This document shows positions 1,691 through 58,634 of a DNA stretch of 64,000 nucleotides, one piece after another. Numbering within the stretch: position 1 is the first letter of the stretch; every line of letters begins with the position of its first letter. Both the position numbers and the translations under genes were made by a program. The notes under the pieces are model-generated. The model was not told the origin of the DNA. It saw only the letters and a program-made list of their open reading frames with translations, and made no database searches. Source of the DNA: Octopus sinensis (lineage: Eukaryota); contig NC_042997.1 in the NCBI RefSeq assembly GCF_006345805.1, positions 172,298,001-172,362,000 of the forward strand, written 5' to 3'.

Positions 1691-2558
1691 TATATAATAT
1701 TTATCAACGAGATAAGTAACGTTTTTTCTTTAACAATATCATTCAACTTTTGAATTGTATTATGCTTGATTATTATTATTATTGTTGTTAAAATATTAAT
1801 TTATATATAATTTCTTGATAATTATTACTTACGATATGTATATCTATTTATGTATTTTGTTTATAATTATTTTTATAATGTGATTTAACATATTACATAT
1901 AATTTAATTTGAGAAATAATTTTGTAAGACAACATATTATTTAATAGTTAGGTGGTCTATTTATTACATAGTATTACATTTAAGTAAATAAGTTTAATAT
2001 TAATTGATATTTTGGTCAATTATATAATTGAGTAAAATATTAAATGTATAGATACTACATATAAATTAATAATATAGTTAGTTTATATAATAGGTGTGTA
2101 TATATTTGAACCATTTTCTATTTTAATTCTAATATTTATAGCTTGTACTAGCAATATGTATATTACTTAACATTAAGTTTTTTTTAGTATACATTATTTG
2201 ATAATAATATTTAATTTAGATGTTTATTAAATAAATAAATTAATTAATAAATTATTTAATTTAATGTATATAGATTAAATTATAGTATTTTAGTTTCAAT
2301 TAATATATATTTTGTAATTTATATATATATATATATTGATTTGTTTTAAATAATTTAATTAATTGTATTTTATTTTCTAGTAATGAAATATAGGTTATTC
2401 TTTTCTTATATATGTTAAAATTTTATTTTTATAGATATAATAAATATTTACACCTCTTTATTCTTTTTTTTATTTACACAAGAATATTTCATATTTTACA
2501 AGATTATATATTTATATTTATTAATTAGCTTAATTAATTATTTTATTGTTTTTATCTT

Positions 2559-2637
2559 TAACCTGAAGAATGACTATATATTGAATTGATTTTACTGTTA
2601 CCATTTCTTAAATATAGCCACGAAACACGTGTAGTTA
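2559..2637 (+). ncRNA. Type I minimal hammerhead ribozyme motif (partly decayed), Penelope-like
   Basis: TAAC-CTGAAGA-[ATGACTATAT...ATATAGCCAC]-GAAAC-ACGT-GTA-GTTA: stem I TAAC/GTTA, palindromic stem III ACACGTGT, GUA cleavage triplet, two mismatches in stem II. Confidence 0.7.
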
Positions 2638-2810
2638 TTCTACCAAATATATACATTTTATTTATTATTTTGCACATTACTTAGTCATTGGTATATGTTT
2701 TATCTTATATTTAACTTTTCTATAAGATGTAATTTTTTCTAAATGGTATAATTTTATTTTTTCATTGTCGAATTGATAAAAGGTGGTTTATTTCTAATTT
2801 ATATATATAT

Positions 2811-3529: not shown

Positions 3530-3531
<2 letters not shown>

Positions 3532-4272
3532 TAGTTTTATTTTTATAGCGTGCTTTCACTTCACTACCGAGCGCAGCTCTGTGTGCCTTGGGTATGTGCT
3601 GTGATTTGTTGTGATGCTCTGATGGTTATTGTATGGAAAGTGTTCTGCGTAGGATGTGTGCAGTGCCTAGTAGTGCAATTTTCTGTATGTTATATGTGTT
3701 TGTAAGTCCTGGTGTTTTTGTTATGTATTTGTCTGAATATTTTTTTATCATGCCTAATGCACCTACTATGATAGGAATTGTTTCTGTTTTCAGATTCCAC
3801 ATTCTAGTTACCTCTATTTCCAGGTCTTTGTATTTTGAGAGTTTCTCCATTTCTTTTAGAGACACGTTGTCATCAGCTGGTATTGATACATCAATTAGAA
3901 AGCATTTTTTTTCTTCATGGTCTCTGACAACTATATCTGGTCTGTTGGCCTTAATTTCTCTGTCTGTGTGTATCGGCATATCCCAGAGTATGGTTGCTTT
4001 CTCGTTTTCTGTGACCTTTTCTGGTGTGTGCCTATACCATCTTTTTTCTGTTGTTATTCCATAATGTTGGCATAGCTTCCAATGTATGTAGGTTCCAACT
4101 CTGTCATGTCTGTGAATATATTCCTTCTTAGCCAGGACTGGGCAGCTAGAGATAATATGATTTATTGTTTCTTGTCCATCTCCACATATTCTGCAGTTAC
4201 TTGTAATATTTCTTTTCATTACATGTTTTTGGTAATTTCTGGTGGGGAGGCTTTGGTCTTGTGCTGCAAGAC
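3530..4272 (-). mobile_element. R4/Dong-clade RLE retrotransposon, 3' fragment inserted in (TAA)n
   Basis: ORF 3626-4219 has a CCHC finger (CRICGDGQETINHIISSC) and RLE motif (RPDIVV...IDVSIP...EKLSKY); (TTA)n tracts on both sides. Confidence 0.93.
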
Positions 4273-4325
<53 letters not shown>

Positions 4326-4326
4326 G

Positions 4327-4379
<53 letters not shown>

Positions 4380-10039: not shown

Positions 10040-10321
10040 TATACATTAAATTAATAATAATATACATATGTATATAATTATATTAAGGGAGCAAGGGCGA
10101 AAATGTCCTATCTCCAGCATACTTGAAGAGCTGAGACCTTCAAAAAACTACCAAAAACTCCAGATAAAATATACACATGACTGAAAGCAGGCTAGTGAAA
10201 GAATATTAAAAATACCTCACATTAATTGTGAATTGGTTCCAATTTCTCATTTGGTCGCTTTTGCCCTTGCTCCCTTAATATAATTATATACATATGTATA
10301 TTATTATTAATTTAATGTATA
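10040..10321. repeat. Perfect 59-bp inverted repeat with 164-bp spacer
   Basis: 10040-10098 is the exact reverse complement of 10263-10321. Confidence 0.92.
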
Positions 10322-10344
10322 ATTACATATTATTAAGAATTGTA

Positions 10345-11913: not shown

Positions 11914-12163
11914 TATTCAAAAGCAGCAGAAATATAACTGCTTTTTCTACTGCTTTTAAATAAAGCATATTACTCTACCTCTGGTATTTGAGTACTCTTT
12001 TTTCCACCTTATTTCACATTTATGTGCTTCCTCCAGTATATATATATGTATATATATGGTCCAAATCGGATATGTAAACTATGTGGCTGTCTTTCCAATA
12101 TATTGTGGATGTAAGGTGTAGGTAAAAGAGGTAGTCAGACTCTGCATAAGGAGTAAACAACCA

Positions 12164-12206
<43 letters not shown>

Positions 12207-12392
12207 CATGTGTGTGTGTGTGCATGTATGTGTGTGTGTGTATTCATGCATTTATTAATAAAGTTGCAAAGACATCACAAAAACTGCTACTCAGACAATT
12301 TTAAAACTGTCCAATGAACAGGAACAGTTTTTGTGATGTCTTTGCAGTTTTATTAATAAAGCATATTACTCTACCTCTGGTATTCGAGTACT
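11911..12392. mobile_element. Cluster of (TA)n/(TG)n-flanked fold-back mini-elements
   Basis: Hairpins at 11911-11965 and 12251-12360 (36-bp arms, 2 mismatches) are each followed by AAAGCATATTACTCTACCTCTGGTATT(T/C)GAGTAC; same family as 49740-49929. Confidence 0.7.
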
Positions 12393-12401
12393 ATATATAT
12401 A

Positions 12402-12965
12402 TGTCCTTTTTTATCACCTCTCCTTAATTCTTCTGCCCCTCTGCTTCTACTTCTCTCTCTTCTCTTCCCACGTAACCGCACGGTCAGCCTAGCCTGTTCT
12501 TTCTTTCTTGGTCTGACTGCCGTCTGTGCAACATTGATATTCTTCCCTGTGTTTGTAAAATTTTTGTATCTCTACCGTAAGGCTTCATTTCCACACGCAC
12601 CAGCTTAATTCAATTCATCCTTAGTCGAAAAACATGTGTTGTTATGTCCTCTTATTATTTTTATTGTATTTATTATTGTATCTATATTTGTGTAACTGTC
12701 CGTTTTTTTCCGTTCTTGTTTTTGTATACATTTGTTGATTTCTTCCAAGGAATCTAATGCTCTTAGCTTAGTTTTTCCTTGGGGCTGGCCAGATTGGAGC
12801 AATCTGAAGAATAATCAGCTGAAATTGCGAGGATAATCTGGTGCTTGACTGAGGATAGAGGGCTTCGAATGACCCGTCCTTGATTTCTTTGTATTGGCGC
12901 TCTGGATGTTTTGTTGTCCCTTTTTGTATCACCTAGCTGTCCAGGTGTTTTGCATTTTGTATTTT
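12402..12965 (+). mobile_element. (TA)n-flanked non-coding element carrying a structured RNA core
   Basis: Bounded by (TA)n; pyrimidine-rich 5' part; core 12741-12878 is shared with 27050-27192(-). Confidence 0.65.
12741..12878 (+). ncRNA. Putative structured RNA (hairpin, kink-turn hairpin, pseudoknot), family unassigned
   Basis: Compensatory changes relative to the copy at 27050-27192 in three helices; K-turn consensus (3-nt bulge + GA opposite GGA). Confidence 0.65.
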
Positions 12966-26989: not shown

Positions 26990-27657
26990 AGAATGAATGT
27001 TTTATATATAATGAACTTGAAATACAGGAAGGGACGAACACGGAACACAGACAATCATTCGAAGCCTTCAATCTTCAGTCAGACACCGAATCATCATAGC
27101 AAATTTCGGCTGTTCAATTCTGATATTTGCTCCAACTCGGCCAGCCCCAAGAAAAAAACTAAAGCTGTAGCATTAGATTTCTTGTAGAAGACAGGAATGT
27201 GAACGCACAAGACGGATGTGAATACAAAGAACGAAAACGAAATTGAAAACATAATGAATAAACAAAATATATATAAAACGTGGTTGTCATACGACTTTAG
27301 ACCAAATGAGACAAAACACAACAACATAGCAGCTGGCATAGAAATAATTACCGTTTCGGTAGCGGGGACACATGTTGGTCGAGATACGAAGGCCAACAGA
27401 ATGGTTGAAGAAGCAGCAGGTCGCAGGAGAGAGAGAAAGAGAGACAGAGATAAGGGAATCAAAGAGGGTGGAAGGCAGGGGACAGAATCAGTGACCAAGA
27501 GAAAAGGAGAAAGAAGGGATTAAGGAGGATGGGAAGGAAGAGGGGAGGAGGATGGGAGGAAGAGAGGGGAAGAATCGGAGGGCGCCAAAATTTTGTGAAG
27601 AAGCAATGGCGGGTAGTAAAAGACAGTGTGTATAGAAGTCGTGCAGGGTTTAAAATT

Positions 27658-27662
<5 letters not shown>
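26990..27662 (-). mobile_element. (TA)n-flanked non-coding element, second carrier of the structured RNA core (27050-27192)
   Basis: (TA)n on both sides; core alignable to 12741-12878, flanks only weakly similar. Confidence 0.65.
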
Positions 27663-28929: not shown

Positions 28930-29130
28930 GTTAATCCAAACATGAAAACACAAAGAGAAAACACAACCCGAGGACATGGAACAAGTATAGTGTTATTGGA
29001 CGCTCAGGAAAGGAAAGAAAGAAGGAGGATTTAACGTTTTGTGCAGAGCTCTTCGTCAGAAACATAGGAAAAGGAAAGATCCAAGGAAGGGAAGACGGAG
29101 GAAAAAAAATCGCCAACGGTACACACGATA
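28930..29130 (-). mobile_element. (TA)n-adjacent mini-element with minimal hammerhead motif
   Basis: Close copy of 49409-49623; minus strand GTTT-CTGACGA-AGAGCTCTGCAC-AAAACGTT-AAAT. Confidence 0.7.
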
Positions 29131-49121: not shown

Positions 49122-49395
49122 TTTAATATTTCTATTATTGAAAACAAGTGGATGTATTCCACCAAAACTAGGTAAATAAAGCCTTTGAACTGAGACGATC
49201 AGTAGCGACACCTGCAAGTCTGACTACGCTGCATTGATAAGGGGCAACAACCCTGAAACGTCTGTAGCTGTCTGACTGGCAGGATGAAGCGGCTGACCTC
49301 CCTTGTTCGAAGGTTATAATGGACGCTGTTTGTGTGTCAAATAGCTAGATTAAGGCGATGGCCTCATAGAACTAATCAGCGACAGCTTTAGTCTT
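49122..49395 (+). mobile_element. ~270-bp (TA)n-flanked retrozyme-like element with extended type I hammerhead (49211-49283)
   Basis: GCTGCA-TTGATAA-GGGG-CAACAA-CCCT-GAAACGTC-TGTAGC; stem I extends to CCTGC/GCAGG; core deviates from CTGATGA at two positions. Confidence 0.7.
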
Positions 49396-49408
49396 ATATA
49401 TATATATA

Positions 49409-49623
49409 GTTAATCCAAACATAAAAACACAAAGAGAAAACACAACAACACGAGGACGTGGAACAAGTATAGTATTACTGGACATTCTGGAAAGGAAAGA
49501 AAGAAGGAGGATTTAATGTTTCGAGCAGAGCTCTTCGTCAGAAACATAGAAAAAGCAAAGATCCAAGGAAGGGAAGACAGAGGAAAAAAATCGCCAAAGA
49601 TACACACGCGGTTACATATTGAA
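49409..49623 (-). mobile_element. (TA)n-flanked mini-element with minimal hammerhead (49511-49545)
   Basis: Minus strand GTTT-CTGACGA-A-GAGC-TCT-GCTC-GAAACATT-AAAT. Confidence 0.75.
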
Positions 49624-49635
49624 ATATATATATAT

Positions 49636-49929
<294 letters not shown>

Positions 49930-49944
49930 TATATATATATATAT

Positions 49945-55603: not shown

Positions 55604-58480
55604 TTTTTTTTTCTTCTTTCAAATTTGCTTCCATTTCTTGCCGAGTGTCTTCCCGACTCCTAGGGCAAAGAAACTCATAGTATACATTCGTAGACCATTA
55701 AACCAAACTCAGTAGTTCGTTCATTTTTTTTTTTTTTTTTTTTTTCTTAAAGTTAAATTAAAATACATGAGCAGCAACAGTTCTCACATCGACAATGCTC
55801 TTCTCAATACGTGTGATGTACCAGTTAAGACAATCTTTTGCACTTCTTGCAGGGATGGTAAGCCAGGGATCATTCTCATATAATTTTCGGTTCCCTTCTT
55901 GATCATTCCTAGTGCTCCTACAATCACTGGTATTGTAACCGCCTTGAGATGCCACATTTTCTCAATTTCAATGAGTAGGTCTTTATATTTTCTGAGCTTG
56001 TCAAACTCTTTCGCTGAGATATTATAATCACAGGGGATGCCCATGTCGATCAATAAGCAAACTTTATTGTTTTGGTCTTTCACAACAATATCTGGTTTAT
56101 TGGCCTTGATGGTTCGGTCTGTATGTACTGGAAAGTCCCACAGAATGGTTACATTTTCTCCTTCAGTTACAGCCTCAGGGTGGTGATTATACCACTTGTC
56201 GGCAGTTTTGATATTGTAATGCCGACTTATTAGCCAGTGGAGATATTGGCCAACTCTGTCATGTCTTAATTTATACTCCACTGGTGCTAAGACTTTACAT
56301 CCAGAGATTAGGTGGTCCACTGTTTCAATCATGTCGTTGCAGAATCGGCATTTTGGGTCTGCTCCATTTTTCATCACATTGGCCTGGTAGTTCCGGGTTA
56401 ATAGGCTTTGATCTTGAGCAGCCAGGATGAAACCTTCGCTCTCTGCTTTTAGCCCTGAGTTCCGTAGCCACTGATGGGTTTGCTTCTGGTCAACATCAGC
56501 TTGTTTGCTGCGGGTCACATATTTGCCGTGCAGAGGTTTCTCCTCCCACCTATCAGCCAATTGCTCGTGCGCTTTTTTCATTGCCATCATTTTCACCTTC
56601 TTTGCAACAATAGTTGCCGTACTTCCCTCGGGTTGTTCAGTTTGGGTATCCTGCACGAGATCAATAGCAAATTTTTTGCTTTCCTTTATGATAGAATGAA
56701 GCTTCTTTCGTCTCTCATGATTTTCCACGAGCTTTAGCATCCAGTCATTCGATATTTCGAGATATTTGGCCAGTCCAATTGTGGTTGTTTTGTAAGCTAG
56801 TTCAAATTGGATCAGGCCTCGACCTCCTTGGGCTCTGGGAAGGTAAAGGCGATCTACGTCTGCCTTTGGGTGGTGCATCCTATTACAACTCAGTAGCTTG
56901 CGTATTTTTCTATCTATATTCTTTACTTCACTCATATTCCAGTTCAACACATTGTAGCTATAAGTAACAACTGGAACTGCTAAGGAATTTATAGCTAACA
57001 CCTTGTTACGTGCATTTAGTTCAGATTTCAGGACTGCACGAACTCTCCTATAACATTCCTTCCTGATTTTCTCTTTCATGCTTGCATGCTGAATACCAGA
57101 GCCTTCATTTATCCCTAAATATTTGTATGTTTGTTCTTGCTCAAGCTCTCTTATGACTGTGTCAACATCTAACACGACTGAATTTGTGGTCTTCACTTTC
57201 CCTTTCTGGAAAGTGGCCTTGGCACACTTCTCAAGTCCAAACTCCATCCCGATGTCATCGCTGAATGCTTTCACGGTGCGCAGTAGGCCTTCAAGTTCAT
57301 TATTGTCTTTACCATAAAGTTTTAAGTCATCCATATAAAATAGATGGCTTATTTTTTTATTGGCAATTTTATACCCATACCCTGTTCTGTTTAATTCACT
57401 TGTAAGGGGTATTAGGGCTATGCAGAATATTAAAGGTGAAAGTGAGTCACCTTGAAAAATTCCACAGTTGATGTTTATATTTTCTGAGGCAAGTACTCCA
57501 TTAGAGTGGTATAATTGGAGATTCGTATTCCACAACGACATATTGTGCTTCAGGAAGTTTGAAATCACAGGGGAAATTTTGAAGATGTCCAGCGATCTCA
57601 AGATCCATGGATGCGGTATACTGTCGAAGGCCTTTTTGTAGTCAATCCATGCGGTGCTGAGATTTCTGCGCTTGTTGTGACAGTTCTCAAGGATCATATG
57701 ATTGATTAGCAGTTGATCTTTGCATCCGTAAGAGCCTCGGCGGCACCCTTTTTGTTCAATGGGGAAAATATCGTTCTTCTCCATGAATGCATATGTTTTC
57801 TCCGCCAGGATAGATGTTAGGATTTTATACGTGGTGGATAGACAGGTTATAGGCCGATAGTTTTTTGGAAGGTTGGTTTCGTTATTCTTTGGGAGTAGGT
57901 AAGTAATGCCACTTGCTAACCATTCAGGTGTTTTCTTTGGGTCTCTCATAATTCCATTGAGCAGCTGAACTAGCTTACCGTGTGCGCATGGGAGCGATGC
58001 GAGCCAGAAATTCGGCACCCTATCTTTACCGGGGGTTTTCCAATTATGGGCTTTCGTGAGTGCCTTTCTTAGGTCTGCTATTGTGATGTCTTCCCATGCT
58101 TGTTGTTGTAAATTTTGGTAGGATCCTTCAGTTTGTATAATCCAGTCTGCATGTATGTTGTACGTCTTCTTGTCACTCCAAATCCTTTTCCAAAAGTTTT
58201 GAACTTCTTCCATGGGAGGGGGGTCTTTAACGGTTACTTTCTCCTTCCCTATTTCTCTGTAGAATTTTTTGGCATTGGATGTGAACAGCTTATTTTGCTT
58301 GTAAAACTTGTTTCTCTTCTCAAATCTTCGTATTCTTTGGGCTTTTGCTTGGACTTTTTGTTTCAGCGTTTCTTTTATTGATATCAGTTCTTCTCTTGGT
58401 GAGGATCCAAATTTTCTCTTCATCTTTCTTCCTGTTCTGGATCTTACATCATTTCCACTTATTAGTTCATTTAATATTGA

Positions 58481-58481
<1 letters not shown>
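55603..58481 (-). mobile_element. R4/Dong-clade non-LTR retrotransposon, 5'-truncated, inserted in (TAA)n
   Basis: Single uninterrupted frame plus ~180-nt 3' UTR; (TTA)n arrays at 55487-55602 and 58482-58573. Confidence 0.95.
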
Positions 58482-58540
<59 letters not shown>

Positions 58541-58542
58541 CA

Positions 58543-58546
<4 letters not shown>
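55784..58546 (-). CDS. Reverse transcriptase - CCHC finger - restriction-like endonuclease polyprotein (R4/Dong); N-terminal MM-poly-Ile comes from the flanking microsatellite
   Basis: YRPITCLSTTYK, WIDYKKAFDSI, GIFQGDSLSP, LFYMDDLKLY, YKYLG, CRFCNDMIETVDHLISGC, KPDIVV...LIDMGIP...KLRKYKDL; no internal stop. The true element start is missing. Confidence 0.92.
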
Positions 58547-58573
<27 letters not shown>

Positions 58574-58634
58574 CAGAGTTGTAATTATTGTTGCTTTCAA
58601 TAATTAAAATTGCATTATTACTGCAATCTCTTGG

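Follow-up and report, generated by a model that had tools for sequence, protein, structure and literature searches.

We examined a 64,000-nucleotide (nt) stretch of the Octopus sinensis genome (GCF_006345805.1, contig NC_042997.1, positions 172,298,001 to 172,362,000), here called the window, in whose numbering all coordinates are given and which is repeat-rich animal DNA with fragments of long interspersed nuclear elements (LINEs). Two short units in the window, element B (26990..27662, minus strand) and element A (12402..12965, plus strand), carry diverged copies of one structured RNA core. Element B is a unit of ~670 nt lacking an open reading frame (ORF) that lies between (TA)n tracts, and its RNA strand begins with TGTCC; two frames of more than 100 amino acids (aa) occur in it, neither with a Pfam match. 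Element A belongs to a second subfamily and has its core at 12737-12872; in element B, the ribozyme lies 80 nt from the 3' end of the element. The TGTCC 5' boundary and insertion into (TA)n, a trait of the Naiad clade of Penelope-like retroelements, are common to both elements; both are non-coding, are 0.56-0.67 kb long, and occur in the window as monomers. As argued below, the sequences indicate that the core is probably a hammerhead ribozyme that has its strands rewired and cleaves itself at the position drawn, and that its carrier is probably a non-autonomous retroelement of Penelope-like (Naiad) type.

A sequence-only reading of this DNA had described element B as a second, diverged carrier of a kink-turn (k-turn)/pseudoknot core that is also present in element A, its 12.4-kb copy. 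The minus-strand string that it quoted matches 27192-27071 letter for letter, and the conserved core extends beyond this string, to 27056. Its description of the host unit held as well: (TA)n flanks 26990-27662 on both sides, the RNA 5' side is pyrimidine-rich, and the unit is CpG-rich for the window, with an observed/expected ratio of 0.82 in element B compared to 0.60 in element A and 0.37 in the whole window. In the alignment of core against flanks that it had proposed, identity was confined to the core, and uniform divergence was not seen. The A and B cores (about 137-138 nt) are 75-77% identical, with an alignment score (z = 15.1) that was reached in 0 of 300 shuffles. By contrast, the proximal 130 nt of the 5' flank (54% identity; shuffle mean 52%, z = 1.4, 28 of 300 shuffles as high) and the 3' flank (46%; shuffle mean 44%, z = 0.8, 72 of 300) resemble shuffled sequence. 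The whole 5' flank (48%; shuffle mean 46%) gave z = 3.2 with 0 of 300 shuffles as high, a signal that probably reflects a shared pyrimidine bias. These identities, together with the two-sided pair changes described below, support the proposals that the fold was conserved across diverged element lineages whose flanks cannot be aligned and that element B represents a different subfamily from the 12.4-kb copy. The further claim of a "fairly young" insertion may hold, to judge from the CpG content and from two long public contigs that differ by 16 letters and 10 gaps in 651 and by 10 letters and 12 gaps in 610. A covariance model of the two copies detected no third copy of the core in the window, where the next score was 12 bits.

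In the RNA strand of copy B (minus strand throughout), the segments follow in the order P1-P2-II-P3-III-UH-I-II-GAAA-III-P3-I-CUGANGA-P1. The 5' strand of P1 (27185..27192) pairs with 27071-27064 in 7 of 8 pairs and forms a clamp helix beside A9. The P2 hairpin (27148..27184), in which 27184-27178 pairs with 27154-27148 below an apical 4-bp stem, abuts both P1 and stem II. It is followed by the 5' strand of stem II, GGCUG (27142..27146, where G10.1 is 27146), and by a segment (27131..27141) that consists of the 5' strand of P3 (27141-27134) and the unbulged k-turn strand GGA (27133-27131). Block S (27119..27130) contains a stem III strand (27130-27126), U16.1 (27125), H17 (A, 27124), and the stem I strand UCAGA (27123-27119), with the predicted cut at 27124^27123 inside the block. 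A 6-nt linker (27118-27113) leads to block G (27099..27112), which comprises the 3' strand of stem II, CAGCC (27112-27108, where C11.1 is 27108), the GAAA of G12, A13, A14, and A15.1 (27107-27104), and the other stem III strand (27103-27099). The segment 27085..27098 holds the k-turn bulge (27098-27096), GAU (27095-27093), and the 3' strand of P3 (27092-27085). Half of a block C (27072..27083) follows, made up of the stem I strand UCUGA (27083-27079) and CUGAAGA (27078-27072), with no stem II strand after it; the core ends (27056..27071) with the 3' strand of P1 (27071-27064) and a conserved 8-nt tail (27063-27056).

The corresponding helices of copy A (plus strand) are P1 (12737-44/12856-63, 6 of 8 pairs), P2 (12745-52/12775-82), stem II (12783-87/12816-20, with G10.1-U11.1), P3 (12788-95/12835-42), stem III (12799-803/12824-28, with U16.1 at 12803), and stem I (12805-09/12844-48, with one mismatch). 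GAAA occupies 12821-24, CUGAGGA occupies 12849-55, and H17 is C at 12804, which places the predicted cut at 12804^12805. Thus, both copies have CUGANGA beside stem I, GAAA between stems II and III, an A15.1-U16.1 pair, and an H17 that is not G. Stems I, II, and III measure 5, 5, and 6 bp in copy B, with G10.1-C11.1, and 4 of 5, 5, and 5 bp in copy A, with G-U at 10.1-11.1; one A-U pair of stem III is missing from both strands in copy A compared to copy B. The 11 fixed letters of the catalytic core are identical in A and B, whereas both free letters (N7 and H17) differ.

The pairing of GGCTG (27146-27142) with CAGCC (27112-27108) is perfect, as the sequence-only reading had claimed, and this part of its pseudoknot is real. 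Its interpretation was incomplete, in that this strand pair corresponds to hammerhead stem II and that a second crossing helix, the UCAGA/UCUGA pairing that corresponds to stem I, was missed. The helix above the k-turn corresponds to stem III, closed by A15.1-U16.1. The closing helix implied by the sequence-only reading, GTCTTC/GAAGAT, is in the wrong register and takes up letters of the catalytic core; GTCTTC can pair just as well with a partner 7 nt beyond (27069-27064), and the minimum-energy fold of copy B contains this second pairing.

The blocks occur in the non-circular order S-G-C (cleavage site, GAAA, CUGANGA), and neither copy matches the circularly permuted C-G-S order of Rfam hammerhead types I, II, and III. 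Instead of following CUGANGA as it normally does, the stem II strand sits 70 nt upstream, and the A9-G10.1 link is broken. P1 starts right after A9, P2 ends at G10.1, and P1 and P2 abut, so that A9 and G10.1 flank a nick in the P1/P2 stack. P3 connects the distal ends of stems I and II. The pattern of GGA, a 3-nt bulge, and GAU, which fits the consensus of a standard k-turn (C-stem, 3-nt bulge, and tandem G-A/A-G), is found in both copies, in line with the sequence-only reading, and its bulge letters vary. Two further segments, the 8-nt tail after P1 (27063-27056, minus strand; 12864-12872, plus strand) and the tip of P2 (27177-27159), are nearly identical in A and B and have no role in a hammerhead; the tail and the P2 apical stem are candidates for contacts with a protein or a reverse transcriptase.

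A descriptor built from the hammerhead consensus (U-H, GAAA, and CUGANGA in S-G-C order with stems I and III) matched twice in the 64 kb, at the cores of A and B only. In 300 block-wise dinucleotide-shuffled windows, the same descriptor gave 17 matches, and 1 when the upstream stem II and P3 were also required. Shuffling each core 100000 times gave 35 and 57 matches, which fell to 1 and 3 with stem II and P3. Of the 80 cells in the A/B alignment, 77 pair (96.3%), and two-sided changes affect 5 of the 41 pairs (one in P2, two in P3, and two in stem I), compared to 0-1 when partners were slid by 1-3 columns; the 8 pairs of P3 show two further changes that are one-sided. It is highly improbable that the core is a neutral repeat with accidental GAAA and CUGANGA words and short helices, although the helices are indeed short, the tests made by program cover just two copies, and Rfam gave no match. 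The shuffle rates of 1e-5 to 6e-4 per core, the covariation in stem I and P3, G-U pairs that fall on the ribozyme strand, and the recurrence of the layout in four phyla, judged by eye, all argue against chance resemblance.

This recurrence was found among published Naiad elements. The accessible text of Craig et al. (2021; PMC8557442) describes Naiads as preferring (TA)n and as being without canonical hammerheads, with only HHR_core or HHR_half_core motifs in some, for which it gives no fold. The supplement of PMC8557442 holds 54 Naiad consensi. For 25 of these, we compared the terminal 400-600 nt with the octopus core purely by eye and saw its wiring in 7 of the 25 3' ends, from a ctenophore, cnidarians, an acanthocephalan, and cephalopods. 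These are the Naiads of Beroe (ctenophore; an additional hairpin, and stem I of only 2 bp), Clytia 3 and Morbakka 2 (cnidarians), Pomphorhynchus (acanthocephalan; A9/P1/P2/G10.1 junction free of unpaired letters), Octopus bimaculoides and O. vulgaris (both with the k-turn; P1 5/6), and Euprymna (stem II 4/5, no k-turn). All seven have other letters in P1, P2, II, P3, III, and I; for example, stem II is GGCCCC/GGGGCC, GGGGA/TCCCC, GGCC/GGCC, or GACACC/GGTGTC, and P1 is AGAGG/CCTCT, CGTGG/CCACG, or TTATCTGT/ACAGATAA. A stem II strand after CUGANGA is present in none of the seven. The case for the upstream stem II and for P1 rests mainly on this set, compared by eye, which also suggests that conservation reaches further than the sequence-only reading held, to Naiad consensi of four phyla. 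The other 18 ends include 5 ordinary-order hammerheads with a long stem II (four nematode and one spider), 10 without a resolved or visible core, and 3 that we take to be twister-like in look. Thus, Naiad tails appear to swap ribozymes among the split S-G-C form, ordinary-order hammerheads, and twister-like motifs. Conserved motifs of no assigned kind were also observed in the Naiad tails of Darwinula and Clytia 1/2.

The element B unit is present in 20 of the 24 public sequencing runs listed, from 4 organisms and 8 studies, at 34-42% of sampled words. None of the runs that carry the stretch is on record as RNA, which gives no information about expression. Four runs, all of them assembled contigs (X1, X4, X5, and X17; that X4 and X17 are RNA is a guess), were mapped, giving 1799 contig pieces. 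Public contigs cover element B from end to end. X1 and X5 contributed 967 and 817 pieces over 29 of 30 bins; their summed depth, in the tens to hundreds of thousands, is no copy number but suggests that the family is a high-copy one. Ten substitution sites are listed within 27059-27192 among the 1799 pieces, and none falls on a core letter, a result that is weak alone and expected by chance about 1 time in 3. The variants can be placed on the model: 27084 gives stem I a sixth pair, 27098 lies in the k-turn bulge, 27113 and 27115 lie in the linker, 27139 makes a U-G pair, and 27152 equals the letter of copy A. A variant at 27089 is accompanied by a loose contig end at 27138 that restores P3, and a variant at 27159-61 is a register shift toward copy A. 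Most family contigs have one extra letter behind 27183 that lengthens P2 by one pair, and a loose end behind 27095 in X17 leads into an A-like subfamily in which stem I is fully paired.

Contig 9 of X17 (748 letters) covers 27018-27662, continues for 49 letters, and returns over 27000-27046, with a 30-letter overlap of its ends, a layout that either a circle or a tandem array with units of ~718 nt would produce. Such a head-to-tail joint is listed in 1 of the 4 mapped runs (X17). Contigs 15 and 11 of X4 seem to fit the X17 loop by their lengths, without a listed joint, and the short pieces of X1 and X5 gave no listed joint either. In addition, a loose end before 27056 (10 contigs in X5 and 1 in X17) finishes in the first 8 letters of the core, and in contig 10 of X17 (184 letters) a subfamily core seems to restart ~22 nt after the core end. 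This is a hint of a tandem or circular unit of ~155 nt, little more than the ribozyme itself.

These contigs also bear on the nature of the carrier, which we regard on sequence grounds as a putative non-autonomous, Penelope-like and retrozyme-like element. An N-terminal GIY-YIG endonuclease joined to a reverse transcriptase, the ORF of Naiads, is not contained in the 670-nt unit, and element B can thus be at most a non-autonomous partner. The elements could instead be 5'-truncated pseudo-long terminal repeats (pseudo-LTRs) of autonomous, undescribed Naiad families, a reading that would leave the ribozyme unaffected and to which we give a minor share of the probability. Penelope-like elements leave many truncated 3' ends, several of which, with minimal hammerheads, lie in (TA)n of this window. 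However, both copies start with the same TGTCC, and the X17 contig closes after 49 letters, which leaves no room for an ORF.

Several points weigh against a rewired, self-cleaving hammerhead in a Naiad-type carrier. The distances in the descriptor were chosen with knowledge of copies A and B, and stem II shows one-sided changes only between the window copies. The nested part of the model, whose energy excludes the crossing helices and the k-turn, reaches -21.6 (B) and -22.0 (A) kcal/mol compared to -32.3 and -37.7 kcal/mol for the minimum-energy folds, which leave out stems I and III; folding z-scores of the cores are weak (-0.11 and -0.93). Copy A has the stem I mismatch, which leaves a stem of -0.9 kcal/mol, and this copy may be dead. 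The Naiad comparison was made by eye with names inferred from file order, 18 of the 25 ends lack the layout of the octopus core, and the k-turn is clear only in the Octopus consensi. In the accessible text of PMC8557442, cephalopod Naiads are long-dead remnants (for O. vulgaris, the part of PMC13282606 at hand lists 31 Penelope-like families with recent activity). An autonomous partner did not come to light, and exact motif searches in the published file of Naiads gave no relevant match. Finally, the round X17 contig is compatible with a tandem array in DNA, and the RNA nature of that run is a guess.

A rival 4-bp partner for stem II, 5 nt past A9, also occurs in both copies and counts on the same side. 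It would allow an ordinary hammerhead of the type-SGC class, named for the S-G-C order, with an intact block C, stem II formed with GGCU 5 nt after A9, and P1/P2 as an alternative (off) fold or an unrelated structure. We consider this quite improbable, even though the letters around the downstream pairing are identical in A and B. The rival partner is less stable than the longer upstream one (-5.0 compared to -6.8 and -3.5 compared to -5.1 kcal/mol), a descriptor with an intact block C and an insert of 0-2 nt before stem II found no match in the window, and an insert of 5 nt would be needed where the available text of PMC10085705 knows at most 1-2. Moreover, the seven Naiad consensi have, by eye, only the upstream partner, and P1 covaries.

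Alternatively, the fold could derive from a hammerhead but no longer cut alone, serving as a protein-binding handle (for the reverse transcriptase, or for an L7Ae-family protein at the k-turn) or depending on a helper or dimer. The accessible part of PMC4209133 reports that Penelope hammerheads are often weak in vitro, the position near the 3' end would suit template recognition, the P2 tip and the 8-nt tail are conserved without a hammerhead role, and the genomic ends differ from the cut site. Against these points, both copies and, by eye, the seven consensi retain all catalytic letters and the UH site, while helix letters change freely, and we regard loss of cutting as unlikely.

If the core is the rewired hammerhead, its strands would rebuild a normal hammerhead active site that cuts after AUA (27124^27123) or AUC (12804^12805). 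The 5' strand of P1 runs straight into P2, and the P1/P2 stack with its A9/G10.1 nick would replace the missing bond; the linker and P3 would keep stems I and II together, taking over from a loop-loop contact, and the k-turn would fold P3 back along stem III. Head-to-tail copies would be transcribed and cut once per unit into monomers of ~0.72 kb that would be closed into circles, and the cut ends, still paired via P1, II, P3, and III, would favour religation. A Penelope-like reverse transcriptase/endonuclease acting in trans would then prime at a nicked (TA)n tract and copy the unit; this would explain why genomic copies begin and end at a TA tract, with the ribozyme inside. The steps of circle formation and insertion in trans are drawn by analogy with systems described in the available parts of PMC4209133, PMC7761336, PMC7229834, and preprint 10.64898/2026.07.22.740005.

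Other RNA classes were considered for the core. Rfam gave no match in the window at gathering score, and 7 weak matches around element B up to E 10, none of them a ribozyme. A C/D small nucleolar RNA was rejected (17 bits compared to a cut-off of 40, and missing in copy A). By eye, the consensi of twister, hepatitis delta virus-like, hairpin, hatchet, and pistol ribozymes and of the selenocysteine insertion sequence did not fit, nor did an ordinary hammerhead built from CUGAAGA and a later GAAU. Motif scans of viral contigs gave one terminator-like chance match, and none in a second scan; a scan of metagenome contigs gave 3 matches, all GC-rich and without the upstream core, and two scans of prokaryote genomes gave 0 and 0.

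Elsewhere in the window, a 939-aa reverse transcriptase frame (55784-58603, minus strand; RVT_1, E 1e-29) lies within an (ATT)n tract, and a related element has left a 3' fragment (3530-4330, minus strand) that is also embedded in (ATT)n; both are presumably Dong/R4-like, to judge from their C-terminal motifs. The segment 17100-18930 (minus strand) is presumably a decayed L1/Tx1-like LINE end, and the single frame tested there had no Pfam match. Minimal hammerhead cores of ordinary order were located by script in short T-rich pieces adjoining (TA)n at 49541 (minus), 50066 (minus), and 51947 (plus), and similar pieces were seen by eye at 28930-29130 (minus), 49140-49390 (plus), and 2550-2640 (plus). 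These T-rich pieces resemble Penelope pseudo-LTRs, and they imply that the TA tracts of this genome share at least two hammerhead wirings. Near element A, there are inverted-repeat or duplicated short pieces (10083-10140, 10256-10330, 11920-11995, and 12260-12390), among them one palindromic element and one Penelope-like end that is repeated at 49790-49930.

The closest known systems are the type-SGC hammerheads (HRIMA-1 and variants), which cleave in vitro (Eckert et al., 2023; PMC10085705). According to the accessible text of that paper, they have a short linker between stems I and II and a helix that ties these stems together, almost all are known only from metatranscriptomes and none from genomes of known organisms, and the block of CUGANGA flanked by strands of stems I and II is assumed to be uninterruptible. 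The octopus core resembles them in its S-G-C order, full catalytic consensus, short linker between the stem I and stem II strands (6 nt, compared to typically 3 nt in theirs), two crossing helices, and P3 as tying helix, and differs in a block C that is split between A9 and G10.1 with P1/P2 added as a clamp, and in a high-copy location in an animal genome. In addition, the k-turn joins the tying helix to stem III on both strands, a meeting that the available text of PMC10085705 leaves open; if our reading is true, the k-turn gives a concrete answer to how, in type-SGC ribozymes, the tying helix gets to stem III.

Among other variants, PMC13725137 mentions, in the part available, hammerheads with additional helices without detail, PMC6765202 (likewise a partial source) reports a hammerhead in which a long insert splits a loop, and the text of PMC10162972 contains none of the terms on variant hammerheads that were looked for in it. 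No description of a split-core or k-turn hammerhead, or of a type-SGC hammerhead in an animal genome or a Penelope-like element, was found in literature that lies mostly outside subscription papers; the term type-SGC occurred there in one paper. The strand-joining order of the octopus core was likewise not found in print in this mostly open-access literature. If true, our reading would bring non-circularly permuted hammerheads, so far anonymous RNAs of metatranscriptomes, into animal genomes and link them with a clade of retrotransposons. It would also break the stated rule of an uninterruptible CUGANGA block, and the view that Naiads are without hammerheads would need revision for some members of the clade; the split block implies that current descriptors miss the octopus form. 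As a tentative extension, the core may represent a seventh hammerhead wiring beyond the six block orders thought possible, with the strand broken at A9/G10.1 and bridged by a helical junction. It may be the hidden ribozyme of a share of Naiads from ctenophores to cephalopods, active as a monomer and religating circles, and in Octopus a k-turn-binding protein of the host may tune it, in which case the genome would hold thousands of copies of a self-cleaving RNA that is gated by a protein.

Compared to the Naiads in the accessible part of PMC8557442, elements A and B share the (TA)n targets and a ribozyme 70-110 nt from the 3' end, and the two Octopus consensi have, by eye, a k-turn and a P3 similar to that of the octopus cores. 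In contrast to Naiads, the elements have no ORF, are 0.56-0.67 kb long, and have flanks that are not recognisably related. The metazoan non-LTR retrozymes, as described in the available parts of PMC7229834, PMC7761336, and preprint 10.64898/2026.07.22.740005, are likewise non-coding, low-GC, and hammerhead-bearing, occur as monomers with a head-to-tail junction as here, and have been proposed to depend on Penelope-like enzymes. They consist of 150-400-nt units with a type I hammerhead, which is not present in the octopus unit, compared to a split type-SGC hammerhead in a 0.7-kb unit. Finally, the minimal type I hammerheads of Penelope pseudo-LTRs, in the accessible text of PMC4209133, have the ordinary order and a weak or absent stem III and are thought to be active as dimers, whereas stem III of the octopus core is 5-6 bp long and a monomer can be drawn.
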